Shown piece after piece: positions 4,298-63,910 of a stretch of 64,000 bases of DNA; the first letter of the stretch is position 1, and the number at the start of each line of letters is the position of its first letter. Source of the stretch: an uncultured Gammaproteobacteria bacterium (GTDB taxonomy: Bacteria; Patescibacteriota; Microgenomatia; Levybacterales; UBA12049). The notes beneath the pieces were generated by a model that did no database searches, was not told the origin of the DNA, and worked only from the letters and a program-made list of their open reading frames with translations. The stretch spans positions 13,203-77,202 of the forward strand of contig CAYOZJ010000005.1 of the NCBI GenBank assembly GCA_964408485.1. Direction: 5' to 3'. The position numbers and the translations under genes are program-made.

Positions 4298-4528
4298 ATG
4301 GCAATTGATGTTCAGCGACCAACAAATCTTCTAAAAGAATTGGCAGAGAAATTTTCTGAACCAGTAGCACGCAGAAATCCTGTACCCTCAGCAAAAGCTT
4401 CAACTCACGAAGCTTATTTAGCCACTTTACAACGCCCAAGCAGATCTCGTGATCAACTACGACTCGCTCGACACAATGCAGATCAACAGCATACGCATGT
4501 CTTAGGTTTTCTTCTTCGAAATAAGTAA
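4298..4528 (+). CDS. Hypothetical small protein (76 aa) with near-leaderless start
   Basis: ATG 9 nt after a perfect -10; in frame with listed ORF 4256-4528. Confidence 0.35.
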   Translation: MAIDVQRPTNLLKELAEKFSEPVARRNPVPSAKASTHEAYLATLQRPSRSRDQLRLARHNADQQHTHVLGFLLRNK

Positions 4529-4650
4529 TTCCCTTCCTTTTTGAACCCTTAACTTTTTTATTAACCCTACTCTACCTTCAACTCTTTGAGCAATTTCTTG
4601 AATTCTCTATCCTATTTGACTTCCATTTTTCTTTTCCATCATAATAAAGC

Positions 4651-5988
4651 ATGGCTATACAACCCGGCACTCCAGAAATTACACCACCTAAAGCTAAAAG
4701 CACCAAGGATACTCCTCCATTAACTCCCTTTCATTCTCAATATGTGGAACGTTTAGGACCTAATGGCGAAATAACCAGGTATCGGCTGCGTCAGTCAGGC
4801 GAAGGAAACTCAGGCAACTTGTATGACCTATCTCATCCTGATGTAGATTTTTGGCGAATAAACCAATATAGAACCCTTATGGAAAACACTATTAAGCCAT
4901 ATAAAGTCTTGAGCTCAAAAATGCATGACATAGAACTTTTTTCCAAACCGGAATCAAGACAGCGCCCTATTGTACAAAAGAACTTACAAGACAGCCTAAA
5001 TCAATTACTTGGAGGAGCAACTATCCTTTCATCAGAAATATCTCGCACCATGCGAGAAGCAACTCAAGAAGGAAGTGTAGCGCTAACTATTGGTTCATTT
5101 TTTAAGCATGTTGCCAATGATGGACCAAGGAGTAATTTAGAAATACCTCTTTCTTGGCTTGCAACATCAAGCTTTGAGGGTTATACCATGGTAGATACTC
5201 TCGCTCGATATGTTTATGGAGTAAAAGCAGAACCGGCTGATATAACAACACAAAGAGAATCTCAACAGCAAGACATACCTCAAAGGCTTGAAAAACTGCT
5301 TGATACACAGATTCCTATGGATGTTTTGAAAAGTGCAGCAGAACGCTTGCGAAAAAATCCAGTAGGCATAACGCTCAGCATGCTTTTGCAAGAAGTAAGT
5401 AGATCTTATCCCCCATTCATGGACAATATTGCAGAAAATCTTTCGAGCCAACAACCAATAGAACAACAGTCTGCCCACCTTATGCTGAAAACTTTTCAAG
5501 AATTTATTGCTACCTATCCTGAACCCATGCTCATAAAAGATCCACCGTGGAAAGAATGGTATAACCGCATAAAAAATAATCGCCTATTGGGAAAACCACT
5601 ATTCTCTCGCCAATCCTTTACACCAGAGGAAATGCTTAAAATACTGATAGGAGCTAAAAGCAGAGATAAAAGCATATCTAAAAAAACAGATCAGTTTATG
5701 AGCGCCTTGCATAATGCACCAAGTCAGGTTGGTAAAATGACTATGAATGATGCAATGGAACAAGTGAAAAAAACTTATCCTGATGGAATAATTCCTGGAA
5801 TAGAAGCTGCTGCAAAAACAAATGCAGCATTAAATAATCAGCCCTTCGAAGGAAGACTTCCTCTCTCACCGAATCAGGAAAGATATATAAGAAGAGTACG
5901 AAAAGAAGACAGAGAGAGCATACGATACTATCTGGAGCAGAATAACTACTTGCTTAATTTGTATCAGAAATATGTAGGCTTATTTTAG
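4651..5988 (+). CDS. Hypothetical protein (445 aa)
   Basis: Long intact ORF; no family recognised. Confidence 0.5.
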   Translation: MAIQPGTPEITPPKAKSTKDTPPLTPFHSQYVERLGPNGEITRYRLRQSGEGNSGNLYDLSHPDVDFWRINQYRTLMENTIKPYKVLSSKMHDIELFSKPESRQRPIVQKNLQDSLNQLLGGATILSSEISRTMREATQEGSVALTIGSFFKHVANDGPRSNLEIPLSWLATSSFEGYTMVDTLARYVYGVKAEPADITTQRESQQQDIPQRLEKLLDTQIPMDVLKSAAERLRKNPVGITLSMLLQEVSRSYPPFMDNIAENLSSQQPIEQQSAHLMLKTFQEFIATYPEPMLIKDPPWKEWYNRIKNNRLLGKPLFSRQSFTPEEMLKILIGAKSRDKSISKKTDQFMSALHNAPSQVGKMTMNDAMEQVKKTYPDGIIPGIEAAAKTNAALNNQPFEGRLPLSPNQERYIRRVRKEDRESIRYYLEQNNYLLNLYQKYVGLF

Positions 5989-46474: not shown

Positions 46475-46590
46475 TTTCTAAGTATTCTAATTTCTAATTG
46501 ACCTAAACAAACCCCAAGCTCAAATTTCTAATGTCTTGTCATTGGTGCTTTTTTAGAAATTAGGGTAATTAGGTAAATTAGGTTAATTTA
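46472..46590. repeat. D-family AT-rich intergenic repeat (copy 2) between convergent genes
   Basis: ttctaatttctaattgacctaaacaaa...ggtgcttttttagaaattagggtaattaggtaaattaggttaattt. Confidence 0.7.
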
Positions 46591-47478
46591 GTAGCCTACT
46601 CCCTTCATCCAGTGATGATGAAGCTTACGCTTTTTGAAAAGAAAATCAAATGCATGATTTATTTTAATACTCGGAACAGGTATGCCTGGAAGAGCTGTCG
46701 GACGGTACTTCCGTAAAAGAATAATAATAAGGATAATGACTATCAGGACAAGCAGTAACCAAACCCACCACGGAATTTCAAAAAGGTTAAAACCAGGAAG
46801 TTGCCCAAGACCAGAGGGAGTTGGGCCAGCCGTGGGCTTAAAACCGCTTATTCCTTGAATAAGAATCTTCTTAAGTTGTTGCTCAGATGGCTTACCTGCC
46901 AACACTGAGTCTGCGAAAAGCTCGTTATTTCCTGCTTTTTGAATCTTAATATTACACGCGTAATATCCACCTATATCTGCAATTACCGAACATCCCGTAT
47001 TCCCATTAAGATGAACTGTGATTCTCGCCCCAGGCATACCGTACCCAAAAGCTAATGCATCATCGCCAATTTGCACATCTGTGCGCTGCACTCCAAGCGT
47101 TGGTGGCAAAAATATACCTGTTTTGGTAATTACGCCATTGATCGGCGTTACGCTTACGCATGCCTCAGATTGTCCAAGTTTCTTGTAATCAACTGCATCA
47201 AAACATATCGTACTTGTTGCTTTTGGTACTGTCACATTGCTAAAACTAAAGTTACCCTGCGCGTCTGCTGTGGTCGAGGTAATAACAGTATTATTAATTG
47301 TTAAGACAACTGAGGCAAAAGGAGCAATATAGCCACTAACAGAAAGCGAATATCCAGCAACAGTAACTTGAACATTTGTCTGCGCACTTTGTGTAGCTGA
47401 AGCAGCCTCTACCTTGTCATGAAAAGTGACTGTGAAAATAAATAAAAAGAGAAAAAGTGAAAATAGCCTCAACTTCAT
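46588..47478 (-). CDS. Cell-surface protein with signal peptide, Ig-like beta region and a TM helix near the C-terminus
   Basis: MKLRLFSLFLFLFIFTVTF signal; WWVWLLLVLIVIILIIILLRKYR TM helix. Confidence 0.5.
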   Translation of the reverse strand: MKLRLFSLFLFLFIFTVTFHDKVEAASATQSAQTNVQVTVAGYSLSVSGYIAPFASVVLTINNTVITSTTADAQGNFSFSNVTVPKATSTICFDAVDYKKLGQSEACVSVTPINGVITKTGIFLPPTLGVQRTDVQIGDDALAFGYGMPGARITVHLNGNTGCSVIADIGGYYACNIKIQKAGNNELFADSVLAGKPSEQQLKKILIQGISGFKPTAGPTPSGLGQLPGFNLFEIPWWVWLLLVLIVIILIIILLRKYRPTALPGIPVPSIKINHAFDFLFKKRKLHHHWMKGVGY

Positions 47479-48214
47479 AGTCTCTCTTTATTGTAGACAG
47501 TATAAAATCCAATCACAAGGGACTAGATTTGCTCAGTAAGAAAAATATCTTTGATTGCTAAACGCTTACATCTAAAAATAAAAGAGGGTGGCGCGAGTTG
47601 GGAGTCCCCCATTGAGTGCCCGCAGTGAAACGAGGACATTGAATGAGGGTGACGAGCGACAGGACCCTGAGTAAACATAATACTTTTCACAAGATACGTA
47701 CAAACAAAACAAAGAAAATAGAAAATTGGATGGAAAAAATCAAACTTCCTATTAAACCAATCCAAACAACAGACATATCATATCTGTCACTTTATCCTTC
47801 TCTCTGCTAAAAGCCATGCCTCAAACTCGTGCCTAAGAATTATACGAAAATAAATACAACAAGCATAAAAATACGAAATAAAATATAATTTTGGTTTTCA
47901 CCGGTATTTCCTGTGAAATATACTATTACAGGACTCATTATGTTTTTAGATATAATTTGATATAGATTTATATTACATATTTTATCTACTTTGTGACTGA
48001 TGTTTTACTTTTATTCGGTTTTAAAATCCTTTTTCACGTTTAAAAAATATTATTTTCACAGATTCGATTTTTTATTTTTTACTTTACTCCAGGTCATTGA
48101 CAAGCTAATGTATAATTTCTACGCTTAAATAGTAGTAGTACAGCTCTTGATAATTCGTATAATCCGTATAATCTCGAGGCTAAGGAAACAAAAAGCAAGA
48201 TTTCATACTGCCCT

Positions 48215-51200
48215 ATGGAATATTTACAAAAGTTTAGAATTTATTTACTTTCATTAACACCTGCACCGTCAGCAGTAACTGTGAAAAATTACTGCTTAGA
48301 CGTGAAGCACTTTATTTCGTGGTCAGAACAGAAAAATCACGCACCCTTCGATCCATCAAAAGTTACCCAGGATGAAATAGAAAAGTTTCGACAGGATGAG
48401 AATGGACATCTCTCTGCTCGCTCACTCGATAGGCACGTATCAAGCTTACGAAAATTCTTCCACAGCCTTAAATTACAAGGCGTATTATCAACAAGTCCAT
48501 TTGAAAATACAGTATCTACTCAATTACCAACAGATCCCTACAAGCTAAAACAATTCAAAGATTTCCTTTATGTCTATAACGCAAGTAATCTAACTATAAA
48601 AAACTACATCATTGATGTGAAGCAGTTTTTCAAATGGGCAGAGGAAAAAATTCAAGCTCAGACAGACCAGGAGTCTGAAGAAATTACCCCTCTTTCCTAC
48701 CTAAGTAATGACCTTTTAGCCACATACCGAGATGAATTATTCTCAGGAAATGTTTTCTCAGCCTCATCTATCAACCGAAAGCTCTCTTCTCTTCGCAAGT
48801 ATATTGGCTGGGCAAAGTCACAAAATTTCTTGGAAAACGAATTAGACTCCCGTAATAATCCAAACGAAGTAGCAAACATAGCTAGCGCTCACACTTCTAG
48901 CGTGCTAGAAGTGAATCAGAACAAAGCGGAAAGCGAAAAGCGTAAAGAATTAGAAACCAAAAAAGAAGCAAATGGGAAAAACCTTGACGCTTTACCCTTA
49001 ACGCTTAACGCTGGTTACTCTCCTTTTCCTCCTCTTCGTCTTGCTCAAAAGATATCAAAAGGATTCAATTATGGTTTGGACGTTGCTATTATCGCTCCTC
49101 TTGCTAAGCTCGTATTGCAAGGTACAAAAGTGCTCTGGACACTCCAAGGAAAACCTCTTTTTGTTGCAGCAAAGAAATCATTAAGGCTAGCAAGTCCTGT
49201 GAAAAATATATCTAAGTTTGCAGTACAGGCTGGAGAAGTTTCCACAGCTAACTTTTCATGGTATCAAAAAATTTGGCATCACGCACAAAACACACGACCT
49301 AACTGGTACAGAAGATATCATCAACTACCAGTCGCCCATTATTTTAACTGGGCGATACTCATGATTGTTATGACAATCATTGGTGTTGGTTTTTATAATA
49401 GCTTTATTGCAAAGCCACAGAATAGTAAACCACTTTTAGCAGCAGCCCAACCAAACAGAATTCTTTCTTTCCAGGGTAGACTTACTGATAGCAGCAATAA
49501 TCCAATCACCACTTCTTCAAATTTGCGGTTTGCTATTTATACAGACGCAACTTCAACAGGTTCTGCCCAACTATGGCAAGAATTAGACAATGTTACGCCG
49601 GATGCTAACGGCGTATTTTCTGTTTTGCTTGGAAAAAACAGTAGCATTCAACAATCGCTCTTTGCTAATAATGCGAATTTATATTTGGGTATTACTGTCG
49701 AACAGACACCCGAGCTCACTCCTCGCCAACAACTCGCAACAGTTGCCTATGCGACCAACGCAGAAACACTCCAAGGTCTACCACCTATCACCCAGTCTGG
49801 CGCGGGAACAAGCAATGTCGTCCTCGCACTAAATTCTTCTGGTAATTTATCCATTGGTGCAGCATCCACTTTTCAGACCGTTGGTGGCGCATTTACGCTT
49901 GCTGGAGATACGCTTGTCTTAAATACCAATCCCGGTACAAATGGTAACATAACCATAACCCCAGACGGCCTAGGTTTTATAGATTTGCAAAAGCCACTTG
50001 TTAATACAACACAAAACAATAACATTCCATCAGCTTCAGGCTCTGTGGAAATTGATGATACGCTTGCAATTCTTGCAACATCAGATGCTGTCCCTGCCCA
50101 AACAATTAATCAAGACGGTGCAGGTGCACTTTTCACAGCTTCAGCTGGAGGTATTAGTAAATTCACCATTGGCAATTCAGGGACAATAACTGCCAGCAAT
50201 TACAATACAGCAGGTGGCGTTTTTTATGCAGATGGTACTGGTCTTTTTCTCCAAACAACAGCAGGCGCGATTGGCCAATGTCTTACATCTAATGGATCTT
50301 CTGGTCCAAGCTGGACAGCATGTAGTGGTGGATCTGCAAACAACTTTTGGACAATTACAAATGGCGCATTGTATCCAGTGAATACAACACTTGATGTCCT
50401 CTTTGGCGGAACTGCATCAAATGGCGCTAATTTTGCCTTTATTAACAACGCACCAGGATCCGGCACACCAACAGCATCTGTTTCAGGAAATATTACGCTT
50501 AATAGCGCAGGCCTCATTCAGACAACAAATAACCAACAGCTGACTATTGGCGGCGATACGACAGGCAATATCGTCCTCAAGCCATTGAATGGTGCAGGAA
50601 CTGTTACCTTATCTGGCTACGCAACAGGAATAATTCATTCAACGTCTGGAGTTTTATCTTCAAGTGCTGTTGACTTGGCAAGCGGAGATGTAACTGGTGT
50701 GTTGCCTTTAGCAAATGGGGGTACAAATAATAGCTTGGTTGCAGATAATGGTGGCATCGTCTATTCAGACGCAACAAGACTTCAAGTTTTGGCGCATGCG
50801 GGATCTGCAGGACTTTGTCTTACCTCTGGTGGCGCAGGCGCCCCAAGCTGGGCGAGCTGTTCGGGAAGTAATTCCAACTTCTGGAATGTAAATAACGGCG
50901 TCATTTACCCAAGCAATTCAACGCTTGATTTTATTTTGGGTGGAGACGGCGCAACAACATCTGCAAAATTTGCAGTCCTGAATATGACAGGTTCTGGAAC
51001 ACCAGTTGCATCAGTAAGTAGTGGTTTGAATGGAAATGCTACATATATCGCAGCAGATGGAACACTTCAGACAACAAGAAACCATGCGCTAACAATTGGC
51101 GGAAGCACAACTGGAAACATAATCCTTAGCCCGCTTAACAGCTTGGGATATGTCCAACTAAATGGAACAGTCAATTCTAATCTTGTCCCAACAATCACTG

Positions 51201-54200
51201 ACACCTATAACTTGGGCTCACCAAGTAATGAATGGAATAACTTATATGTTAAAAATCTTGTTGTCTCAGGAAGCATCGCAGGATTTTGGCAAAGAAATTC
51301 AGGTGTCCTCTCCCCTACCAATATTACAGACGACTTAGCGATTGGCGGTATAGCAACAAATACTGCAAGATTCCAAGTCTTTGCAAATACAGGCAATGCA
51401 ACAACTGCAGGTAATTTAACTTTCACCGGAAATGGTAGCCAAATTCAGACAACAAGTAACCAAACTCTCACTCTTGGAGGAAATACCACAGGAGGTATCG
51501 TGTTATCTCCAAGTAATGGAACAGGCACAATTGGTCTCAATGCAAGCAACATAACAACAAATCAAACAACTGTAAATCTTCTCAACACCACAGCAACAAC
51601 GGTTAATTTTGCAGGCGCTGCAACAACAGTAAGTATTGGCAATTCAGGAGGATCTACAACAATCAATGGCGGTTTAGTGGTAAATGCAGACACACAGCTT
51701 CTTGGCAATACAACGTTAGGCGACAGCTCATCTGACACAATTGCCTTTATTGGCCAAGTAAATACCAATATTCTCCCTTCCACAACAAATGCTCGTGATC
51801 TTGGCTCCCTTGCTCAACAATGGAATAATATTTATGGAAATCACATTTTTAGCAATGGTGTTGAATTGTCCCAATTCTTCCAGAGAAATTTTGGCGTTAT
51901 ATCCCCATTGAATATCACTGACGACTTAGCTGTCGGTGGAACAGCAACAAATACTGCTAAATTTCAGGTATCTGGCTTAACAGGCAATGCAACAACTACG
52001 GGTACACTTACGTTTGATGGGACGGGTAACCTTATCCAGACAACTAAATTCCAGGATTTAACAATTGGTGGGACAACAACTGGAAATATTACACTCAGTC
52101 CAAAAAATGGAACAGGCACAGTTACCATTGCAGGGCTGTCATCGGGTGTAGTACATAGTACCGGGGGCATCCTCTCTTCAAGTAACGTAAACTTAACCAG
52201 TGAAGTAACCGGTATCCTTCCTATTGCCAATGGAGGCACAAATACTAATACAATAGGTTCGGCAGGAAGCATTGCCTACTCAACCGGTACTGCATATGCA
52301 TTTAATTCAGTGGGATCCACAGGTCAATGTCTTGTATCTAATGGATCTGGAGCCCCTAACTGGACATCATGTACTACTGCAGCAGGCGCAACAAATTACT
52401 GGACACTCGATGGCGGCAATGGAATTTTGTATCCTGTTAATACAACACTTGATGTGTTGTTTGGTGGAACATCGAGTAACTCTGCTAATTTTGCATTTCT
52501 TAATAATGCACCAGGATCTGGTACACCAACTGCATCCATTTCCGGTAACTTAACTCTCAATAGCGCTGGAAACATTCAAACAACAAATAACCAACCACTG
52601 ACCATTGGCGGCAATACAACGGGAAGTGTTACCTTAGCGCCAAGCAATGGAAATGGAACGCTCAATCTTAATGCTACAAATATTAATACAAATCAGACAA
52701 GTGTAAATCTTCTCAACACAACAGCAACAACAATTAATTTTGGAGGTGCAGCAACAAGTATTAATATCGGTAATGCAGGAGGCTCAGCAACATTTAATGG
52801 CGGGCTTGTCGTCAATGCAGATACAACGCTTAACGGCAACACAACCTTAGGAGATAGCTCGAGTGATCGAGTCACTTTTAACGGACTAGTGAATTCAAAT
52901 ATCATTCCATCTGCAAATAATACCTATGACTTAGGCTCAATCACGAATGCATGGAATAATATTTTTGTTAACAACATTATCTCAAGTGGCAACATATCAG
53001 GACTTTGGCAAAGATTTTTGGGAGTCCTATCCCCTGTTAATATTGGCGATGACTTAGCAATCGGTGGGACAGCAACAGGTACAGCCAAATTTCAAGTGTT
53101 TGGTAACACTGGCAATGCAACAACTGCAGGTAATCTCACATTTAATGGCAATGGAGTAATTCAAGCAACAAATAATCAACCTCTTACGATTGGCGGAGAT
53201 ACAACAGGCAGTATAACAGTAGCGCCTAATAATGGTACTGGCACAGTAAATCTTAACGCTACAAATATTAATACCAATCAAACAAGTGTAAACCTACTTA
53301 ATTCTACTACTACAGCAATTAATTTTGGAGGTGCAGCAACTGCGCTTTCAATCGGTGCAGGATCTGGAACAACAACAGTTAATAATGGTCTCACAGTTAC
53401 CGGAACAAGCACCTTAAATGGCAATGTTGTTTTGGGAGCAAATAGTACCAAAACAATTACCGCAAACGGACAGTTTAATTCCTCTCTTATTCCATCAGTA
53501 ACCGATACTTACGATTTAGGATCAATTGCACTTGAGTGGAATAATCTGTATGTTAAAAATATTATTGCAGGGGGCAATGTATCTGGATTTTGGCAGAGAT
53601 TCTTGGGAGTTATTTCTCCAACAAATATCACGGACGACTTAGCAATTGGTGGAACAGCAACAAATACAGCAAGGTTCCAGGTTTTTGGAAATACAGGCAA
53701 TGCAACAACTACAGGTACACTTACTTTTGATGGGACCGGTAGCCTTATCCAGACAACACGAAACCAAGGCCTAACAATTGGAGGAGATACAACAGGAAAT
53801 ATTACGATAAAACCACTCAATGGAACAGGAACAGTCACTATTGCAGGACTTGGGACAGGAGTAGTACATAGCACAAATGGACTTCTTTCTAGTAGTGCAG
53901 TGAATTTAGCAAATGGCTCAGCAGATATAACTGGAACTCTTTCAACAAGTAATGGCGGTACGGGACAAAATTCATACGCTGGCGGCGATCTTCTGTATTA
54001 TGCATCCGGAACATCTTTATCCAAACTCACTATTGGCGGCGCAAATACAATCCTCACATCAACCGGCACAGCTCCACAATGGTCAAGTAGCCTCACACTT
54101 GGAGGCAACTTAAATGTGAATGGTAACACAACGCTTGGAGACACCGCTGGGGATACGATAACCTTTAATGGTCAAGTTAATTCCAATATTATCCCAACAA

Positions 54201-57200
54201 GCAGTAATGCATTTGATTTAGGATCCATAACCAATGCATGGAACAATTTGTACGTTAACAACATTATCTCAAGCGGTAATATCTCAGGATTCTGGCAAAG
54301 AAATTCTGGCGCACTTTCCCCTGCTAATATTACCGACGATCTTTTAGCAGGCGGTACAGCAACAAGTACAGCAAAGTTTGCAGTCTTAAATATGGCAGGA
54401 GGTACACCTGTTGCTTCTATTTCTTCAGGACTTTCTGGAACAGGACTATATCTCTCAGCAGATGGAAGTATCCAAACAGTAAGAAATCAAGGTCTAACAC
54501 TTGGTGGGGCAACAACGGGAAATATCATTCTCTCTCCACTTGGCGGAACAGGAACAGTAACAATAAATGGCCTTGGAACTGGCATTGTCCACAGTACAAC
54601 GGGGGTACTCTCAAGTAGTGCAGTAAATTTAGCAAATACAGATGTCACAGGAATTTTGCCTTTGGCAAATGGAGGAACAAATGCAAACCTTACCGCAGAT
54701 AATGGCGGCATAGTCTACTCAGATGCTTCTAAGTTGCAGATATTGGCTCATGCAGGCACAGTTGGACAATGTTTGGTAAGCGGCGGATCAGGAGCACCAA
54801 GCTGGACAAATTGTAGTAGTGCCTCGCAAAATTGGTGGAATGTAAATAATGGCGCACTCTTTCCTATCAATTCAACGCTTGATCTTCTCTTAGGTGGAGA
54901 CGGCGCAACAACATCTGCAAAATTTGCAGTACTCAATATGACTGGGAGTGGCACACCAACTGCATCAGTAAGTAGTGGTTTGAATGGAAATGCAACATAC
55001 ATTACAGCAGATGGAACACTTCAAACAACACGCAACCAAGGACTGACGATTGGAGGCGCAACAACAGGAAATATTACGCTTTCTCCTCTTAATGGTGGAA
55101 GTGTAAGTACAATCAATCTTAATGCCAGGACACTTGCAACCAACCAAACGACGGTCGATCTGCTTAACACAACGGCAACAAGTATTAACTTTGGAGGAGC
55201 AGCAACCTCTCTTTCTATTGGAAATTCAGGTGGAACAACAACAGTCAATGGTGCCTTAGCCGTAAATGGCAATACCAACTTAAATGGCAATACAACAATT
55301 GGCGACAACGCATCAGATACCATTGCATTTACTGCACATGTTAACTCCAGCATCCTTCCCAGCACTGATACAACCTATGACTTAGGAAGTGGTTCGCTTA
55401 GGTGGAATAATGTCTATGCTGGCAATCTCATTCTTCCTGTTACAGGCGGAATCGATGGCTATTGGACACTTGCCTCAAGTGTTCTATCACCAACAAATAC
55501 GTGGAATGATTTAGTAATAGGCGGAACGTCAACAAGCAGCGCTAAATTCCAAGTATTTTCCAATACAGGTAATGCTACAACGTCTGGTAATTTGACATTC
55601 AATGGCAATGGAACAATTCAGACAACGAATAATCAGCCACTTACTCTTGGTGGCAACAGTACAGGTAATATCATTCTTTCCCCAAATAACGCAGCAGGAT
55701 CGGTAACAGTTAATGGATTTATAAGCAGTAATCTTATTCCATCAAGAAATGATACGTATGACTTAGGCTCTGGGACAAATGAATGGAATAACTTGTATGT
55801 TAAAAACATTATCTCGACCGGTAATTTAGCAGGATTCTGGCAGAGAAATTCTGGCACACTCGCTCCCCTTAATATTAGTGATGATTTGCTCGCCGGTGGA
55901 ACAGCAACAAGTACAGCGCGATTTGCTGTGCTTAATATGTCTGGCCCTGGTACACCAACAGCATCTGTTAGCTCAGGACTTTCTGGCACTGGTATGTATT
56001 TTGATGCCAATGGAACAATCCAAACAGTCAGAAACCAAGGCTTGACTCTTGGTGGGGCGACAACGGGAAATATCACACTTTCACCTCTTAATGGAAGTGG
56101 AATAGTAACAGTGAATGGGACAAGTTTGCTGAGCTCTGGAACATCATTTAACTTGCTTACTGGCGCAACAACAATTTCCATCGGCGCAGGGTCCGGAACA
56201 ACAACAGTTAATAACGGCCTAACTGTTACCGGAACAAGCACATTAAATGGCAATGTCGTATTAGGCGCGAGCAGTAGTCAAACAATCGCAGCAAATGGTC
56301 AATTTACAACAAGTCTTATCCCAAATACTGACGCGTCATTTGATCTTGGATCTAGTCCATCCAATAGATGGAGAAACCTTTTCCTGTCTGGTAATTCAAC
56401 AGTTGGTGGCAATGAAACAGTTACCGGAACAGCAACAGTTGGTAATTTAGTTTTGGCATCAACTGCTAATTATGGCGGGTTCTGGCAGAGATTTAGCGGT
56501 GCACTCTCCCCTGTTTATTCAACAGATGATATTCTTGTAGGGTCAAATGCAACAACATCTGCAAAGTTTGCACTTTTAAACATCGCAAATGGCACACCTG
56601 TTGCTTCTATTTCATCAGGTTTTTCTGGAACAGGCATGTACTTTGATGCAACTGGGACTATTCAAACAGTGAGAAATGCAGTACTTACTCTTGGCGGCAA
56701 TACAACAGGTGGAGTAGTATTTGGCAGTAATGTTGCATCAAATATTCTGCCAAAGTTTACTAATACCTATGATTTGGGATCACTTGCTCTTCAGTGGAAT
56801 AATGGATATTTCAACAATATTTATGCAAATGGTCAGCCCATAACACAACTATTCCAAAGAAATTCTGGCGCACTTTCCCCTCTCAATATTACTGATGACT
56901 TACTCTTGGGTGGCACAGCAACAAGTACTGCTAGATTTGCATTTATTAATAACACTGGGACAGGCGCACCAACTGCTTCTATCTCAAGTAACTTCTCACT
57001 TGTTGTCCCAACAGGCGCAGCACCAGCAGAAACAATTAATGTCTTAAATGGTGGAAGTCTTAATATTCAACACTCAGCAGGTGGAGACACAGGACTCACA
57101 AGTTCACTCTTTATAGACAAAGCAGGACAAGTTGGTGTTGGGACAGCAAGTGTATCTCATCAGCTTGAAATTGCCGGAAGTTCAACGCAATTTAATTCAA

Positions 57201-60200
57201 CAGTCTATCTGAATCCTTCAACATTTGGATCTTCAAAACGAGCTGGTCTTAATCTTGATAATTGGCTCTTAGCACAAGATATTGGAGGAACAGGTGTAAA
57301 AGATTTTGTTATCTATGACACAGCAAGTGGCCAATCAAAATTCTACATAACTGCCAATGCAAATGGTGGAGCAGGCTTTGGTTTGCCTGTACTTGGCGCT
57401 GTCAATAGCCTTGGTAACTCAGAATTTGTCGTAAATCAACCAAATACCGCTGGAGACATACTAAGTGCATCAACATCTGGCACAACAAAATTTGTGATTA
57501 CCAATGATGGGACCGTTGGTATTGCAAATAATGTAACCGATGCAACTATTCTTAATAAATCTGCTCTTGATGTACGAAAAGATTCCTTTGGTAATGCACT
57601 AACACTCTTCAAACAGCTTTCCTCTGATACCAATGCAGATATTATTACTGCATCTAATTCTGCAGGACTTACGGAATACAGACTCACTAATGCAGGCGTT
57701 GAACAGGCAAGACAATTCCAGGATTTGGATAGCACTGCTTACTTCCTTGATCCTGCAGCATCTGGCAATTCTCTTATCATTGCAGGGACAGCTGGTATTG
57801 GAACAACCTCTCCCCTTGCATCCAGTGGCTTAGATATAGAGAAAAATGCATTAGGCAATGCAGCAGAAGTGGTTAATCAATTAGGTAATGGCGATATCTT
57901 TACTGCTTCTGCATCTGGAGTTAAGAAGTTTACTATTCAAAATGATGGAACACTGGTTGCTGGAAAATACACAACAAACAAAGGCATACTATATATTAAT
58001 GATACAGCTGGAACAATTGCCGAGACAGGACAAGGCGCAGCAAATACTGTACTTCATGGAAATGGCACATCTGCTCCATCATTTAGCGCTGTTGACTTGG
58101 CAGCAGATGTTACAGGCATTCTTCCACTCGCAAATGGAGGAACAAATAATAATATTACTGCAGATAATGGTGGTATAGTCTACTCAGATGCAACCAAACT
58201 CCGACTATTAGCTTCTACGGTAACTGCAGGCCAATGCCTTTTGTCCGGATCAAGCAGCGCGCCAACATGGGGAAGTTGCGGAAGTGGAACAGGCGTAAAT
58301 TGGTGGACAATGAGCAACGGCGCACTCTTCCCTCTTAATAACACCCTTGATTTGTTTGTTGGCGGCAGCGCTACAACATCTGCAAAATTTGCAGTGCTCA
58401 ATATGACTGGGAGTGGCACACCAACAGCATCTGTAAGCTCAGGACTTTCTGGCAATGCAACATATATTACCGCAGACGGATCTTTACAGACAGCACGAGC
58501 AGCAACATTGACCTTGGGCGGAACCACCACCGGCAATATTGTATTAAAACCACAAAATGGTGGAGGCTCTATAACGATCGATGGCCCAACACTTGATACA
58601 ACAAATACAACCTTTAATGCATTTACCACTGCTTCAACGCTTGGTATTGGCGCTGCATCCGGGACAACAACAATAAATAATGGCCTTACTGTAGCTGGCA
58701 ATATTAGTGATAATGGTGGAACATTCACAACAAATCAGACAACATTCAACTTGCTCAATACAACAGCAACAACAATTAATTTTGGTGGCGCTGCAACTGT
58801 TGCACTCAATGTTGGTGCAGCAACAACACCAATTAATCTAAAAGGTAACGTTACACTTGGTACTGATGCAACAAACACTATTACATCAAATGGTTTATAT
58901 GCATCTGATCTTATTCCAACAGGCAATGGATCAATCAACTTGGGATCAGCAACACATTACTATGGCACAGTCTATGCAAATAATTTTATTGCGCCAGTAA
59001 GTGGCGGTGTATCCGGCTTCTGGCAATTAACAAATAGTGTTATCTCCCCTGTTAATGCATGGAATGATTTGGCAATCGGTGGCAATGCAACGGGAAGCGC
59101 AACACCATGGCAAGTATTTGCAACAACTGTTGGCGTTAATACTGCAGGCACAGCAACATCTTCTGGAAATCTTTCATTCAGAGGAACAAATACCAATATT
59201 AACTTGCTTAATGGTAGTATCCTAAGTGTCAAAACATCCATTGGTGGAGACGCAGGACTCGGTACAGTCCTTACCATAGCCAACAATGGCAACCTAACTG
59301 CAACAGGAACATTAAATCTTAACAGTGGAATTCTGGCAACAAATCAAACAACAGCAAGTCTCTTTGATGCAACAGCAACAAGTATTAATATTGGCTCCGG
59401 TGCAACATCAGGTATCGGTATTGGCAATGCAAGTGGAATCAATACAATTAGGGGAAATGTTGTCTTGAATAGCACATCAGGAAATACCCTAACGATTAAT
59501 GGCCGTGTAAATACAGATATCATTCCTGATGTAACTAACTCTCATGATTTGGGCTCTAACGACCTTAAATGGAGAAACATTTTCGCAGGAAGCGCAGTAA
59601 CAACAAATAATCTTTATCTTCCTGTTAGTGGCGGCACTGATGGCTACTGGTCCTTAGCCAGTAATGTGCTATCTCCAACAAATAATTGGAATGACTTGGC
59701 AATAGGAGGAACAGCAACAAGTACTGCTAAATTCCAAGTATTTAGTAACACAGGGAATGCAACAACAGCTGGAAATCTTACTTTTAACGGCAACGGAGTA
59801 ATTCAGACAACCAATAATTTACCATTTACTCTCGGTGGAAATTCTACAGGAACAATTACCCTTGCTCCATCTAATGGTGGCGCAGGCAGTATTCTTAACC
59901 TCAACGCAGCAAATATTAATACTAATCAAACAAGTGTTAATTTACTTAACACAACAGCAACAACAATTAATTTAGGTAACGCCGCAACAACATTAAATCT
60001 TGCTAATAATGCCCTCACAACAACAATTGGTATCGGCGGATCTGGTGGAACAACAACAGTCAATAACGCTCTAACGGTAACTGGTGCAACTACACTAAAT
60101 GGTACGATCAACTTAGGCAATGCAACAAGTGATGACATAACAGCAACAGGATTTTTTGCAAGCTCACTCATTCCAAAAGCAGCAGATACCTATAACCTTG

Positions 60201-63200
60201 GCTCTGTGGCCAATGAATGGGACACACTGTATATCAGACAAATAGTTACTCCATCATCTGGAGGCTTGGCTGGCTTCTGGCAATTATCTAACAAGGGTGT
60301 TTTGGCTCCTGCGAATATTGGTAACGATGTCTTAATTGGCGGCGGCATTGCAACACCATCTGCAGCAACAGATACTGGATTCCAGATTTTTGGAAGTGGA
60401 CCAAACCAAGCAACAGCAACAACATCAGGCAATCTGGCTTTCTATGGCTCAGCACCCACAATCAGCACACAAAGAATGGTTCCATTGACTATTGGCAATG
60501 CAACAACCGGCCCGATTCAACTGTCTCCAAAAGGAACAACAGGCCTGTATGTTGCAGGAACAGGTAATGTTGGGATTGGCACAACTACACCTGGATTTAA
60601 TTTAGAAATTGCTGGTATAACAACACAGTATGGAGCAGCACTGCACATTGATCCGTCAACCTTTGGCTCATCGAAACGAGCTCAACTTGAATTAGACAAC
60701 TGGCAAGTCGCTCAAGACCTCAGTGGAAATGGAACAAAAGACTTTTTCCTTTACGACACTGTTAACGCAGCTACTCGCTTTTACATAAACACCATAGGAG
60801 GTACTGGCATTGGTGCAACAAGTAATCTCGGTAATGCAACACTTATCGTTAATCAAAATAACACGTCTGGTCTTGGGGACATTATCACAGCCTCAGCATC
60901 AGGCACAACACAATTCAAGCTCACCAATGCAGGTATTGTTCAAGCAAAGTCATTCCAGGATTTAGATGATACAAGATACTTTATTGATCCTGCATCATCA
61001 GGTACAGCACTTAGCTTAAACGGTACAGCATCTATGGCGGCTGATCTTACCTTCACTGGTGCTAGTACAACGCATAATATTTATACCTTTAATAATGGCA
61101 ATCTTGATTTCCAAATGAGTCCTGGAGGTGCTATCCCAACGACAGGGGTTGTCCACTCTTTATATCTGCAGGCAGCAACTGGGAATGTAGGTATTGCTAC
61201 AACTTCACCATCAGACACATTAGATATTGCAGGAAATGCCACTGCATCTGGAAATCTTTCTTTCAGAGGAAATGCAACAACACATAATTTAAATCTTCTT
61301 AATAATGGTCAGCTTAATATTAATACGTCTGTTGGAGGCATAGCGACACTTAATACCGCCCTTACTATTGCGGCGGGAAATAATACAACTGCTGGTAATA
61401 TAGGTATAAATAATGTAAGTCCATCGCGCCAGCTTGATGCTTCGGGCTCGTGGGGTGGGAATGTAACAAGCACGCAAGATACAACAGCCTCCAATCATAC
61501 TGATACAGTATCATCGAGTTCTCTTGTATACTTTGTTAATTATACGCTCTCCAGCCCTGGAGGATCTTTCACAACCACCTTTAATATTACTGGTCTACCT
61601 CAAGTTGAAGGCTCATTTTTCATGGTCCGGGTAAGAGCAAATACGAATAATACACAGACCGCAACAGCCTCACTCCAAGCAAATGGGCAAAGCTTAGGAA
61701 GTGCCACAGGAAGCAATGGAGCTAGTAACAAAGATGGCCTTTATGCATATATAGGATCGCAGTGGAATCTTATTGCTAGCAATGACAGCAATAATCAGAA
61801 TGTTGACTTGGCTGAACTTTTCCCATATGGTGCAAAACGCCCAATCCCTGGAGAACTTTTAGCGAGTAATGTACAAAATCATCAAGTACAGTTAGACAGA
61901 ACAGGAAAAGAATATGATCAGAAAGCAATGGGAATTGTCACAACAAATCCAAATATTCTCTTTGGCAAAGATTCAAGTGAAGCAGGCATTCAAAATGATA
62001 ATACATTCCCAATTGATGGAAAAATAGGCTTAGCTCTTGCAGGACGTGTACCAACAATTGTCACCAATCTTGATGGACCTATCGACCAGGGAGATTCTAT
62101 TACCACTTCACCACTTGCAGGCGTTGGCATGAAACCCAACAAAGCAACGCAAACTGTTGGAAAAACACTTGATTCGTTTAATCCTTTAGATGGGAGCACG
62201 GTATGTACATCAGTCGCAAGCTACGACAGCATTCCTTGGCCAAATGACAATGGGACAAATGCTGCTCATCCTTGCTTTAGTGTTCCTGTTGCATCATTCG
62301 ATCAAGCAACGCAACAAATCTTAAATAGTGAATATCATCTTAATCAAACAGACTCAGTATATGTTGGTAAAGTTATGGTTTTGGTAGGCAATGGCTTTGT
62401 GGATCCAGACGTATACCTTACAACAACTGGTGACATACACTTTACCGATGCATCAGCATCTGCTAACTTCACCGTACCACACTACTATAGTGTTGCAGAT
62501 GCAGTAGGACTTCCTATTACCAGAATGGGAAGATTTCTAGAACTTGCAGTGGGTAATCTACGAGCAGGTAGTATCCAAACCCAACAACTCTTTACTAATT
62601 CTCTTGCTATCGCAACAAGCAATGTGACTATTGCCGGAGTAAGTCTCCATGATTATATACAAAATATTGTTACAGAAGTGTTGCAAAACAATCAACAAAC
62701 AGTGAATAGTCCAATAGCCTCAGTTGATCAACTTCATGCTGGTGTTATATCACCTCTTGGCACAGACAATAGTATTGCACTAAGCATAAATAACTCTAGG
62801 TTAGAAGTGAAAAATGGCGCATCTGGGTCTGCTGTGGCTACAATAGACAATCAAGGAAATGCGTCATTTAGTGGCACATTAAATTCACAAAATCTTGCAG
62901 TAAATGCAGATGCAACAATCTCTGGAACACTTCATGCAGGAAAAATCGTGGCTGATGATATCGTAGGACTCAGAGCAGCTGTGGGTACATTATCTGCTCA
63001 AAACATAACGAATGTAACCAACATTTACTTCGCTACACCAAGCGCAGCACCTACTGGGGTAAATTTTGCTACAGGACCTAGTGGTAATAGCAGTACGAAT
63101 TCTGGAGTGCTAACCCCGATTCAATCGGGGCTAAATCCATACATCGGTTATACCAATTTAGCCTCATATTCTGGCTTCTTGGCATATGTACCAAATCTTT

Positions 63201-63910
63201 CTGCAGACACTGCAATGTTTAATCAAGGCCTTGTGTCCTTGGGTACAACAAGTCTTGGAGACACAACAGTAACAGGACAACTCTCTATTGGAACAAATCT
63301 GATCCTCGCGGATAGTAGTGTTAATGTCCTTGGGTCATCATTTGAAATCCAGTCACTGAGACAAGGTGGAGTAAATTTTGAAGGAGGACTTATTGCAATC
63401 GATACTGACGGCAATTTAATGGTTAACGGCAATGCAGTATTTAGTAAAAACTTGGCAGCAAATGTTATCTCGCCACTAAGCAATGATCGCAACCTAACTA
63501 TTAAATTGGGAGAGAATTCTCAAGACTCAGCCTTAGCAACCTCAAATCTTGCAGTACAAAATGCATCTGGATCTGGAGTATTTAGTATTGATCAATTGGG
63601 CAATATCTTAGCAAGCGGTGCAGCAACTATCGGTAAACTTAACCTGACTGCTGCACAGCCTGCTTTGGCAGTAAGTAATACCGAACAAATTGCAACTGGA
63701 TCAGCTGGAACAGCTGCTATTAAGGCAAATCATACAGAAATAACAATCGATAACAAACTAGTAACTAATAGATCACTTATCTATATTACTCCTGTTGGTG
63801 CAAGCTCAGTACCATACCTACTGCGACAGGTAACAAATACTTCATTTACTGTGGGGATCCCTACATCACAATTTACCGATACCACATTTAACTGGCTCAT
63901 CGTTAATTAA
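48215..63910 (+). CDS. Giant (5231 aa) membrane-anchored surface protein: two N-terminal integrase core-binding (SAM-like) domains, one TM helix, long Thr/Asn/Gly-rich beta-rich repeat region
   Basis: Single uninterrupted 15.7-kb ORF. Residues ~5-100 and ~110-205 each match the Phage_int_SAM-like pattern (FRIYLLSLTPAPSAVTVKNYCLDVKHFISW...SARSLDRHVSSLRKFFHSL; FKDFLYVYNASNLTIKNYIIDVKQFFKW...SINRKLSSLRKYIGW). TM helix VAHYFNWAILMIVMTIIGVGFY. Many ~250-aa repeats carrying NQPLTIGGNTTGNI, NINTNQTSVNLLNTTATTINFGGAAT and ISGFWQRNSGVLSPTNITDDLAIGGTATNTAKFQVF. Carries in-frame repeat elements C3 (48925-49012) and F3 (63109-63135). Confidence 0.9.
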   Translation: MEYLQKFRIYLLSLTPAPSAVTVKNYCLDVKHFISWSEQKNHAPFDPSKVTQDEIEKFRQDENGHLSARSLDRHVSSLRKFFHSLKLQGVLSTSPFENTVSTQLPTDPYKLKQFKDFLYVYNASNLTIKNYIIDVKQFFKWAEEKIQAQTDQESEEITPLSYLSNDLLATYRDELFSGNVFSASSINRKLSSLRKYIGWAKSQNFLENELDSRNNPNEVANIASAHTSSVLEVNQNKAESEKRKELETKKEANGKNLDALPLTLNAGYSPFPPLRLAQKISKGFNYGLDVAIIAPLAKLVLQGTKVLWTLQGKPLFVAAKKSLRLASPVKNISKFAVQAGEVSTANFSWYQKIWHHAQNTRPNWYRRYHQLPVAHYFNWAILMIVMTIIGVGFYNSFIAKPQNSKPLLAAAQPNRILSFQGRLTDSSNNPITTSSNLRFAIYTDATSTGSAQLWQELDNVTPDANGVFSVLLGKNSSIQQSLFANNANLYLGITVEQTPELTPRQQLATVAYATNAETLQGLPPITQSGAGTSNVVLALNSSGNLSIGAASTFQTVGGAFTLAGDTLVLNTNPGTNGNITITPDGLGFIDLQKPLVNTTQNNNIPSASGSVEIDDTLAILATSDAVPAQTINQDGAGALFTASAGGISKFTIGNSGTITASNYNTAGGVFYADGTGLFLQTTAGAIGQCLTSNGSSGPSWTACSGGSANNFWTITNGALYPVNTTLDVLFGGTASNGANFAFINNAPGSGTPTASVSGNITLNSAGLIQTTNNQQLTIGGDTTGNIVLKPLNGAGTVTLSGYATGIIHSTSGVLSSSAVDLASGDVTGVLPLANGGTNNSLVADNGGIVYSDATRLQVLAHAGSAGLCLTSGGAGAPSWASCSGSNSNFWNVNNGVIYPSNSTLDFILGGDGATTSAKFAVLNMTGSGTPVASVSSGLNGNATYIAADGTLQTTRNHALTIGGSTTGNIILSPLNSLGYVQLNGTVNSNLVPTITDTYNLGSPSNEWNNLYVKNLVVSGSIAGFWQRNSGVLSPTNITDDLAIGGIATNTARFQVFANTGNATTAGNLTFTGNGSQIQTTSNQTLTLGGNTTGGIVLSPSNGTGTIGLNASNITTNQTTVNLLNTTATTVNFAGAATTVSIGNSGGSTTINGGLVVNADTQLLGNTTLGDSSSDTIAFIGQVNTNILPSTTNARDLGSLAQQWNNIYGNHIFSNGVELSQFFQRNFGVISPLNITDDLAVGGTATNTAKFQVSGLTGNATTTGTLTFDGTGNLIQTTKFQDLTIGGTTTGNITLSPKNGTGTVTIAGLSSGVVHSTGGILSSSNVNLTSEVTGILPIANGGTNTNTIGSAGSIAYSTGTAYAFNSVGSTGQCLVSNGSGAPNWTSCTTAAGATNYWTLDGGNGILYPVNTTLDVLFGGTSSNSANFAFLNNAPGSGTPTASISGNLTLNSAGNIQTTNNQPLTIGGNTTGSVTLAPSNGNGTLNLNATNINTNQTSVNLLNTTATTINFGGAATSINIGNAGGSATFNGGLVVNADTTLNGNTTLGDSSSDRVTFNGLVNSNIIPSANNTYDLGSITNAWNNIFVNNIISSGNISGLWQRFLGVLSPVNIGDDLAIGGTATGTAKFQVFGNTGNATTAGNLTFNGNGVIQATNNQPLTIGGDTTGSITVAPNNGTGTVNLNATNINTNQTSVNLLNSTTTAINFGGAATALSIGAGSGTTTVNNGLTVTGTSTLNGNVVLGANSTKTITANGQFNSSLIPSVTDTYDLGSIALEWNNLYVKNIIAGGNVSGFWQRFLGVISPTNITDDLAIGGTATNTARFQVFGNTGNATTTGTLTFDGTGSLIQTTRNQGLTIGGDTTGNITIKPLNGTGTVTIAGLGTGVVHSTNGLLSSSAVNLANGSADITGTLSTSNGGTGQNSYAGGDLLYYASGTSLSKLTIGGANTILTSTGTAPQWSSSLTLGGNLNVNGNTTLGDTAGDTITFNGQVNSNIIPTSSNAFDLGSITNAWNNLYVNNIISSGNISGFWQRNSGALSPANITDDLLAGGTATSTAKFAVLNMAGGTPVASISSGLSGTGLYLSADGSIQTVRNQGLTLGGATTGNIILSPLGGTGTVTINGLGTGIVHSTTGVLSSSAVNLANTDVTGILPLANGGTNANLTADNGGIVYSDASKLQILAHAGTVGQCLVSGGSGAPSWTNCSSASQNWWNVNNGALFPINSTLDLLLGGDGATTSAKFAVLNMTGSGTPTASVSSGLNGNATYITADGTLQTTRNQGLTIGGATTGNITLSPLNGGSVSTINLNARTLATNQTTVDLLNTTATSINFGGAATSLSIGNSGGTTTVNGALAVNGNTNLNGNTTIGDNASDTIAFTAHVNSSILPSTDTTYDLGSGSLRWNNVYAGNLILPVTGGIDGYWTLASSVLSPTNTWNDLVIGGTSTSSAKFQVFSNTGNATTSGNLTFNGNGTIQTTNNQPLTLGGNSTGNIILSPNNAAGSVTVNGFISSNLIPSRNDTYDLGSGTNEWNNLYVKNIISTGNLAGFWQRNSGTLAPLNISDDLLAGGTATSTARFAVLNMSGPGTPTASVSSGLSGTGMYFDANGTIQTVRNQGLTLGGATTGNITLSPLNGSGIVTVNGTSLLSSGTSFNLLTGATTISIGAGSGTTTVNNGLTVTGTSTLNGNVVLGASSSQTIAANGQFTTSLIPNTDASFDLGSSPSNRWRNLFLSGNSTVGGNETVTGTATVGNLVLASTANYGGFWQRFSGALSPVYSTDDILVGSNATTSAKFALLNIANGTPVASISSGFSGTGMYFDATGTIQTVRNAVLTLGGNTTGGVVFGSNVASNILPKFTNTYDLGSLALQWNNGYFNNIYANGQPITQLFQRNSGALSPLNITDDLLLGGTATSTARFAFINNTGTGAPTASISSNFSLVVPTGAAPAETINVLNGGSLNIQHSAGGDTGLTSSLFIDKAGQVGVGTASVSHQLEIAGSSTQFNSTVYLNPSTFGSSKRAGLNLDNWLLAQDIGGTGVKDFVIYDTASGQSKFYITANANGGAGFGLPVLGAVNSLGNSEFVVNQPNTAGDILSASTSGTTKFVITNDGTVGIANNVTDATILNKSALDVRKDSFGNALTLFKQLSSDTNADIITASNSAGLTEYRLTNAGVEQARQFQDLDSTAYFLDPAASGNSLIIAGTAGIGTTSPLASSGLDIEKNALGNAAEVVNQLGNGDIFTASASGVKKFTIQNDGTLVAGKYTTNKGILYINDTAGTIAETGQGAANTVLHGNGTSAPSFSAVDLAADVTGILPLANGGTNNNITADNGGIVYSDATKLRLLASTVTAGQCLLSGSSSAPTWGSCGSGTGVNWWTMSNGALFPLNNTLDLFVGGSATTSAKFAVLNMTGSGTPTASVSSGLSGNATYITADGSLQTARAATLTLGGTTTGNIVLKPQNGGGSITIDGPTLDTTNTTFNAFTTASTLGIGAASGTTTINNGLTVAGNISDNGGTFTTNQTTFNLLNTTATTINFGGAATVALNVGAATTPINLKGNVTLGTDATNTITSNGLYASDLIPTGNGSINLGSATHYYGTVYANNFIAPVSGGVSGFWQLTNSVISPVNAWNDLAIGGNATGSATPWQVFATTVGVNTAGTATSSGNLSFRGTNTNINLLNGSILSVKTSIGGDAGLGTVLTIANNGNLTATGTLNLNSGILATNQTTASLFDATATSINIGSGATSGIGIGNASGINTIRGNVVLNSTSGNTLTINGRVNTDIIPDVTNSHDLGSNDLKWRNIFAGSAVTTNNLYLPVSGGTDGYWSLASNVLSPTNNWNDLAIGGTATSTAKFQVFSNTGNATTAGNLTFNGNGVIQTTNNLPFTLGGNSTGTITLAPSNGGAGSILNLNAANINTNQTSVNLLNTTATTINLGNAATTLNLANNALTTTIGIGGSGGTTTVNNALTVTGATTLNGTINLGNATSDDITATGFFASSLIPKAADTYNLGSVANEWDTLYIRQIVTPSSGGLAGFWQLSNKGVLAPANIGNDVLIGGGIATPSAATDTGFQIFGSGPNQATATTSGNLAFYGSAPTISTQRMVPLTIGNATTGPIQLSPKGTTGLYVAGTGNVGIGTTTPGFNLEIAGITTQYGAALHIDPSTFGSSKRAQLELDNWQVAQDLSGNGTKDFFLYDTVNAATRFYINTIGGTGIGATSNLGNATLIVNQNNTSGLGDIITASASGTTQFKLTNAGIVQAKSFQDLDDTRYFIDPASSGTALSLNGTASMAADLTFTGASTTHNIYTFNNGNLDFQMSPGGAIPTTGVVHSLYLQAATGNVGIATTSPSDTLDIAGNATASGNLSFRGNATTHNLNLLNNGQLNINTSVGGIATLNTALTIAAGNNTTAGNIGINNVSPSRQLDASGSWGGNVTSTQDTTASNHTDTVSSSSLVYFVNYTLSSPGGSFTTTFNITGLPQVEGSFFMVRVRANTNNTQTATASLQANGQSLGSATGSNGASNKDGLYAYIGSQWNLIASNDSNNQNVDLAELFPYGAKRPIPGELLASNVQNHQVQLDRTGKEYDQKAMGIVTTNPNILFGKDSSEAGIQNDNTFPIDGKIGLALAGRVPTIVTNLDGPIDQGDSITTSPLAGVGMKPNKATQTVGKTLDSFNPLDGSTVCTSVASYDSIPWPNDNGTNAAHPCFSVPVASFDQATQQILNSEYHLNQTDSVYVGKVMVLVGNGFVDPDVYLTTTGDIHFTDASASANFTVPHYYSVADAVGLPITRMGRFLELAVGNLRAGSIQTQQLFTNSLAIATSNVTIAGVSLHDYIQNIVTEVLQNNQQTVNSPIASVDQLHAGVISPLGTDNSIALSINNSRLEVKNGASGSAVATIDNQGNASFSGTLNSQNLAVNADATISGTLHAGKIVADDIVGLRAAVGTLSAQNITNVTNIYFATPSAAPTGVNFATGPSGNSSTNSGVLTPIQSGLNPYIGYTNLASYSGFLAYVPNLSADTAMFNQGLVSLGTTSLGDTTVTGQLSIGTNLILADSSVNVLGSSFEIQSLRQGGVNFEGGLIAIDTDGNLMVNGNAVFSKNLAANVISPLSNDRNLTIKLGENSQDSALATSNLAVQNASGSGVFSIDQLGNILASGAATIGKLNLTAAQPALAVSNTEQIATGSAGTAAIKANHTEITIDNKLVTNRSLIYITPVGASSVPYLLRQVTNTSFTVGIPTSQFTDTTFNWLIVN

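Follow-up and report, generated by a model that had tools for sequence, protein, structure and literature searches.

A giant fibre-like protein of a Patescibacteria bacterium combines a duplicated recombinase core-binding head with parts resembling phage tail fibres

The 64,000-nucleotide stretch of contig CAYOZJ010000005.1 analysed here (assembly GCA_964408485.1; hereafter the window) encodes at 48215-63910, on the forward strand, a giant protein that we label P0001. It joins two tandem core-binding (CB) domains of the tyrosine-recombinase type to a transmembrane helix, a long repetitive stalk and a C-terminal module homologous to phage tail fibres, an anatomy of which we are highly confident. 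We read P0001 as a host-attachment fibre whose DNA-binding head acts as a membrane-tethered contact sensor or nucleoid tether, and assign this reading a probability of about 0.5. The 15.7-kb gene is a single open reading frame (ORF), and its host is a small-genome bacterium of the Patescibacteria, or candidate phyla radiation (CPR), with a CPR-like genome of 1.09 Mb in 19 contigs that is 98% complete. The first-pass annotation of the window had described a single ORF of 5,231 residues in a small-genome, episymbiont-like host, and our analysis agrees on both counts; the ORF opens with ATG and is free of internal stops.

Searches with Pfam profile hidden Markov models matched the N-terminal region to Phage_int_SAM_1 (PF02899, E=3.1e-18) in two stretches, the better of them at residues 111-203, and to Phage_int_SAM_4 (PF13495, E=4.9e-11) at residues 21-85. 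AlphaFold modelling of residues 1-430 with a 40-sequence alignment gave a pLDDT of ~95 across both CB domains, which Foldseek matched to the CB domains of XerA (5hxy), XerD (1a0p), lambda Int (1z19/2oxo), archaeal Int and 3nrw/2kiw, with probabilities of 0.97-1.0 and TM-scores by target of 0.6-0.74 for isolated CB structures. Across an alignment of 40 homologs of the head region (A1), T22, K24, N25 and Y26 are invariant in the first domain (CB1), as are T127, K129, N130, Y131, R188 and K189 in the second (CB2). Sequence identity between the two domains is 35%, and their duplication is older than the family. They are followed by a basic linker with a 39-residue helix and the conserved motifs YSxFPPLRL and W...GKPxF.

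Pfam scans found no catalytic integrase domain (Phage_integrase, PF00589, with its R-H-R-Y residues) anywhere in the 5,231 residues, and for this reason we rejected a recombinase identity ('site-specific integrase') for P0001. The genuine recombinases of this genome are two separate, full-length XerC/D-like ORFs of 290 and 349 residues. BLAST detected no similarity between them and the CB domains of P0001, on which ground we also rejected a recent origin of the head by copying of the genome's own Xer recombinases.

Hydropathy analysis identified only one hydrophobic segment in P0001, at residues 379-399. This segment is internal and P0001 has no N-terminal signal peptide, so the possibility of a cleaved signal peptide was discarded. 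Ahead of the transmembrane helix lies a folded region of 370 residues, made up of the two CB domains and the basic linker; a folded domain of this size cannot cross Sec as an N-terminal tail. Because the helix follows this folded region and a conserved RR juxtamembrane motif, and no signal peptide is present, we infer that P0001 is a type II signal anchor with N-in/C-out topology, an orientation well supported by the internal position of the helix and the positive-inside rule. The anchor would most likely place ~4,830 residues outside the cell. The first-pass annotation had proposed a duplicated core-binding pair without a catalytic integrase domain, held on the cytoplasmic side of a single transmembrane helix; the domains and the helix were recovered as described, and the cytoplasmic placement is the one expected from the internal helix, the folded domain before it and the conserved positive residues.

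The last ~700 residues of P0001 form a conserved, non-repetitive module, whose AlphaFold model (pLDDT 72) we compared with known structures. It contains a domain folded like the intramolecular chaperone (IMC) at the C-terminus of phi29 gp12 (VIA Z 12.6/12.4 against 3suc/3gqh). A search of BFVD with the module gave 140 phage matches at E<=1e-3, including 'preneck appendage' barrels, 'intramolecular chaperone auto-processing domain' proteins and tropism determinants. The terminal beta-sandwich resembles tailspikes, K1 capsule lyase, a pyocin fibre and the Helix pomatia H-type lectin 2ccv (VIA Z 5-9.7). At the position of the IMC-like domain, homologs of type B carry Peptidase_S74, the chaperone of endosialidase, with a Ser-Lys-type motif (SDxRLK ... 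GFIAQxV ... PELV, at positions ~2650, ~4340 and ~3320 of homologs P0003, P0014 and P0020). Those of type A, P0001 among them, have the motif GRVPVKVST at the same internal position, and the S74-type Ser-Lys autocleavage motif is absent from P0001 in the alignment of this region (A2). Homolog P0002 showed a weak match to the Peptidase_G2 IMC domain at this position and a match to Gp34_trimer, the latter giving no match in P0001 in Pfam scans, and the ectodomains of other homologs contain Gp34_trimer, Laminin_G_3 or Kelch domains. Given the gp12-like IMC domain, the segment that matches the tip attachment protein gpJ of lambda, the tip resembling lectins and receptor-binding proteins (RBPs), and the S74 and Gp34_trimer domains in homologs, the ectodomain is a structure resembling phage receptor-binding fibres and is likely trimeric.

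Between the membrane and this module, a repeat array spans residues ~600 to ~4400, with 60-80% identity between repeats at the DNA level. Some repeats contain a pair of cysteines spaced by 14 (GQCL...SWT.C), at residues 688/703, 868/882, 1372/1386, 2186/2200 and 3341/3355. The disulfide-capable loop GQCL...SWTAC of this subset of repeat units is encoded by a 52-nt DNA repeat family (D20; window 50012-61414). Searches of residues 400-4500 against Pfam, PHROGs and PDB sequences returned no domain, and an ESM-Atlas feature search with residues 400-700 returned uncharacterised clusters only. The first-pass annotation had described ~4800 residues of Thr/Asn/Gly-rich repeats with a fibre flavour and a unit of ~250 residues. 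The composition and the repetitive character stand, and the fibre-like nature gains from the tail-fibre homology of the C-terminal module, but the repeats end before the last ~700 residues and their measured period is shorter, ~190-200 residues.

A search for homologous proteins recovered 66 giant homologs of 2,900-7,100 residues, all of them from Patescibacteria where a name is given (Levybacteria, Woesebacteria, Saccharimonadales and Microgenomates); shorter matches were mostly partial fragments. The CB tandem, the W[YF]RRYH juxtamembrane motif, the single transmembrane helix and a C-terminal end reading FNW[LIW][IV][VI]N are common to nearly all giant homologs (~60). The head is 35-60% identical among more than 60 of them, with invariant K, N, Y and R residues in both CB domains, and of 41 related genomes 34 have the head module, as a rule in one copy. 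Judged by this sequence conservation, the CB head is under selection. Dozens of the giant homologs are labelled 'site-specific integrase' or 'site-specific recombinase XerD' and have no catalytic domain (examples are P0005, P0012, P0015, P0018, P0020, P0026, P0032 and P0043). Since the CB head is present and the catalytic domain missing, we regard the integrase name as a systematic misannotation. Our literature searches found no description of the family and, in the literature searched, no precedent for a phage receptor-binding-fibre ectodomain joined to a cytoplasmic head with a DNA-binding fold.

Querying with the C-terminal module uncovered P0132, another giant fibre encoded by this genome in an ORF of 5,053 residues (contig C12, 10505-27999; locus L013:3220-18381, reverse strand). 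In the same place ahead of its transmembrane helix (at ~240-266, preceded by RR), P0132 carries an excisionase-like HTH_17 domain and a MerR DNA-binding domain, a head present in 28 of 41 relatives. Identity between the repeats of P0132 and those of P0001 is 40-49%; the IMC motif of P0132 is of type A, and an H-type lectin lies at its C-terminus. The CB head of P0001 and the HTH_17/MerR head of P0132 together imply that a cytoplasmic head of DNA-binding type was joined to this kind of fibre at least twice. The first-pass annotation had suggested transmembrane signalling, an anchoring role or the domestication of a recombinase fold. On the domain evidence, the different head of P0132 tilts these candidate roles towards DNA binding or signalling, and the best reading of the CB head is a conserved, swappable module with predicted DNA binding.

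The proposed fibre would be fixed in the membrane N-in/C-out by its internal signal anchor, and its lectin-like, phage-RBP-like tip would bind the host cell of the episymbiont, as a phage receptor-binding fibre does. The cytoplasmic CB head would bind DNA, and the protein would then act in the manner of ToxR, as a one-component regulator, or would keep the nucleoid tethered at the site of host contact. The DNA-binding output is a tentative part of this proposal to which we give somewhat less than even odds. Still more doubtful is the wider idea that CB- and helix-turn-helix-headed fibres alike serve as one-component regulators that sense contact, or as nucleoid tethers. Binding of the tip to a host cell would then be relayed via the single transmembrane helix to the DNA-binding heads, and these would reprogram expression or position the chromosome where the cells touch.

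Several observations weigh against a DNA-binding sensor or tether. For a sensor, a gene of 15.7 kb would be an unusual outlay, and neither a target DNA motif nor co-regulated genes were found for the CB head. Recombinase CB domains alone bind DNA weakly and usually clamp it together with the catalytic domain, and the SAM-like fold is also able to mediate protein-protein contacts. With a median net charge of +1, CB2 is close to neutral and ill-suited to a strongly DNA-binding surface. In favour of DNA binding, CB1, with a net charge of +3 and an isoelectric point of 9.2, matches the CB domain of the genome's own XerC/D; this comparison of charges is not decisive. In addition, the protein may be cleaved after the transmembrane helix at a conserved LAA motif, part of an LAAxP motif found 10-14 residues past the helix in A1.

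In the closest competitor the CB tandem serves contacts between proteins or oligomerisation, clustering the likely trimeric fibres at the membrane or recruiting cytoplasmic partners, and P0001 would be purely an anchored adhesin. We consider this unlikely, though a serious contender: SAM domains oligomerise, CB2 is not basic, and the invariant CB residues might just as well belong to a surface for interaction, but the classic DNA-binding pair at the same position in the paralog P0132 argues that DNA binding was selected. A less probable alternative is that P0001 is a processed precursor, either cut by signal peptidase at LAA to free the fibre or shedding its C-terminal module by IMC-like autoprocessing, with the head and transmembrane helix staying behind as a small membrane protein. 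The conserved LAAxP motif would suit the former. Phage tail fibres shed S74 chaperones by autoprocessing, and the Ser-Lys-type motif of type-B homologs and the Peptidase_G2 match in P0002 would suit the latter. Set against these are the distance from the helix to LAA, which is long for signal peptidase I, the lack of the S74 motif in P0001 as a type-A protein, and the conserved C-terminal FNWxIVN module, which argues for staying in the mature protein. We think it very improbable that the head is a functionless vestige of a mobile-element fusion between an integrase fragment and a tail-fibre-derived gene, kept by chance. Both the CB and the HTH_17/Xis-like heads do come from integrase and excisionase families of mobile elements, and the ectodomain is phage-fibre-like; yet an unused domain of 370 residues would have been eroded by drift, whereas this one is retained throughout the giant homologs with its invariant residues, its duplication predates the family, and it has no sequence similarity to the recombinases of the genome.

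The remaining concern, that the gene is an assembly chimera or a collapsed repeat, is hardly credible. Contigs do break at repeat unit boundaries, as such an artefact might produce. We examined contigs from four soil metagenome runs, all of one study. Depth along the ORF is even: the run that is likely the source gives ~8-11 and the other three ~4-7. It does not rise over the repeats, these contigs share no frameshift or indel, and the same sequence is present in all four runs. Even depth and the lack of shared frameshifts indicate that the giant gene is neither collapsed nor chimeric, and an assembly artefact was rejected on this basis. The same architecture also occurs in dozens of independent genomes.

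The features of the gene are collected in Table 1. Shine-Dalgarno sequences are often missing in CPR bacteria, and the candidate AAGGAAA is graded weak. A promoter scan gave no excess over shuffled sequence, no terminator was found, and an Rfam search of window 40000-64000 returned no match. A short GC-rich stretch (47580-47660) stands out in the AT-rich intergenic DNA upstream of the giant gene, and it too has no Rfam match. The upstream neighbours are a leucyl-tRNA synthetase gene (40630-43317, reverse strand), small genes and a gene for a Big_6/CarboxypepD_reg protein (46588-47478, reverse strand), and their order is kept beside the closest homolog (GCA_964598355.1, locus L009). Downstream, at 77149-82837 of contig C5 (locus L010), lie genes for TPR-repeat proteins, a dockerin type I domain protein and a DUF559/MTES_1575 restriction-endonuclease-like protein. 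The locus of the closest homolog likewise encodes dockerin proteins, one of them bearing a GH26 mannanase, which is unusual for CPR.

Table 1. Features of the giant gene, in window positions, with the corresponding residues of P0001.
Feature	Window position	Strand	Residues	Basis and remarks
Possible ribosome-binding site AAGGAAA, purine-rich	48182..48188	+		Sequence only, weak; ~27 nt 5' of start
Giant ORF, P0001	48215..63910	+		ATG start, 5,231 aa, no internal stop; contig support
CB1, tyrosine-recombinase core-binding (SAM-like) domain	48215..48499	+	~1-95	Pfam PF13495/PF02899; AF2 (AlphaFold) model and Foldseek against XerD/lambda Int CB; alignment A1
CB2, second core-binding domain	48512..48829	+	~100-205	Pfam PF02899 (best stretch 111-203); model; alignment A1
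Basic cytoplasmic linker (predicted location), net charge +12	48830..49324	+	long helix 272-310	Model secondary structure; charge; A1
Juxtamembrane motif W[YF]RRYH	49304..49321	+	364-369	Conserved across family; positive-inside signal
Single transmembrane signal-anchor helix (predicted)	49340..49411	+	376-399	Hydropathy; kept in nearly all homologs; model helix 372-399
Conserved membrane-proximal region, predicted extracellular, starts PRILSFQGRLTD	49412..50014	+	~400-600	A1 consensus; BLAST to homolog P0002
~20 divergent Thr/Asn/Gly-rich repeats, period ~190-200 aa	50012..61414	+		Repeat analysis of protein and DNA
Domain folded like phi29 gp12 IMC/autoprocessing domain	61775..62389	+	4521-4725	VIA; BFVD; Pfam in homologs; alignment A2
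Segment matching lambda gpJ tip attachment protein	62837..62950	+	profile positions 360-397	A2 profile against PDB sequences, E=0.0015-0.003
C-terminal beta-sandwich, end motif FNW[LI]IVN	63638..63907	+	5142-5231	VIA; motif conserved in homologs

A central question about ultrasmall episymbiotic Patescibacteria is how they recognise their hosts and attach to them, and giant surface proteins are prime candidates. The family described here is abundant, conserved and misannotated across public databases. Provided that the head binds DNA, contact with a host could act through these fibres directly on the nucleoid or on gene expression. In that case host recognition in CPR bacteria would become testable with defined molecules, through DNA binding by the head and attachment by the lectin-like tip, and the family would clearly illustrate how DNA-binding domains of recombinases and excisionases, together with parts of phage tail fibres, can be put to cellular use. 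Were contact sensing in particular to hold, episymbiotic CPR bacteria would have assembled modular signalling out of domesticated parts of mobile elements.

P0001 combines features of four known kinds of protein. With the tyrosine recombinases (XerC/XerD, XerA, lambda Int and the N-terminal domain of Cre) it has the CB fold and the Pfam families PF02899/PF13495 in common, but its CB domains stand in tandem, lack a catalytic domain and lead through a linker to a transmembrane helix and a giant ectodomain. ToxR, TcpP and CadC have an N-terminal cytoplasmic DNA-binding domain, one transmembrane helix and a C-terminal outer sensor, the same topology as predicted for P0001. They use an OmpR-type winged helix-turn-helix where P0001 has a recombinase CB pair, and in place of their sensor P0001 has a phage-fibre-like stalk of ~4,800 residues; a regulatory role of P0001 is putative.

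Phage fibres and RBPs (phi29 gp12, the K1F endosialidase with its S74 chaperone, lambda gpJ and tailspikes) are matched in the IMC fold, the gpJ-like segment and the lectin/RBP-like tip. Unlike them, P0001 is encoded by a cellular chromosomal gene, has a signal-anchor transmembrane helix, a predicted cytoplasmic head of 370 residues and a stalk of ~20 repeat units, and its IMC-like domain is internal where that of phage fibres is terminal. Giant adhesins such as Bap, LapA, SiiE and the FhaB-domain megaproteins of Patescibacterium danicum (PMC11809585) are very long, repetitive and extracellular, as P0001 is predicted to be, but P0001 differs in its internal signal anchor and recombinase-CB head and in lacking an N-terminal signal peptide. 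Scanning the full length of P0001 against Pfam gave no FhaB/haemagglutinin-type domain, and we rejected its classification as an FhaB-type CPR adhesin accordingly. Giant proteins of CPR bacteria are thought to mediate host adhesion (PMC11809585), and CPR episymbionts are discussed in PMC13059738. A CB head on a surface fibre has no known counterpart, giant membrane-anchored adhesins are already known as a kind, and the family itself is already in public databases under a misleading name.
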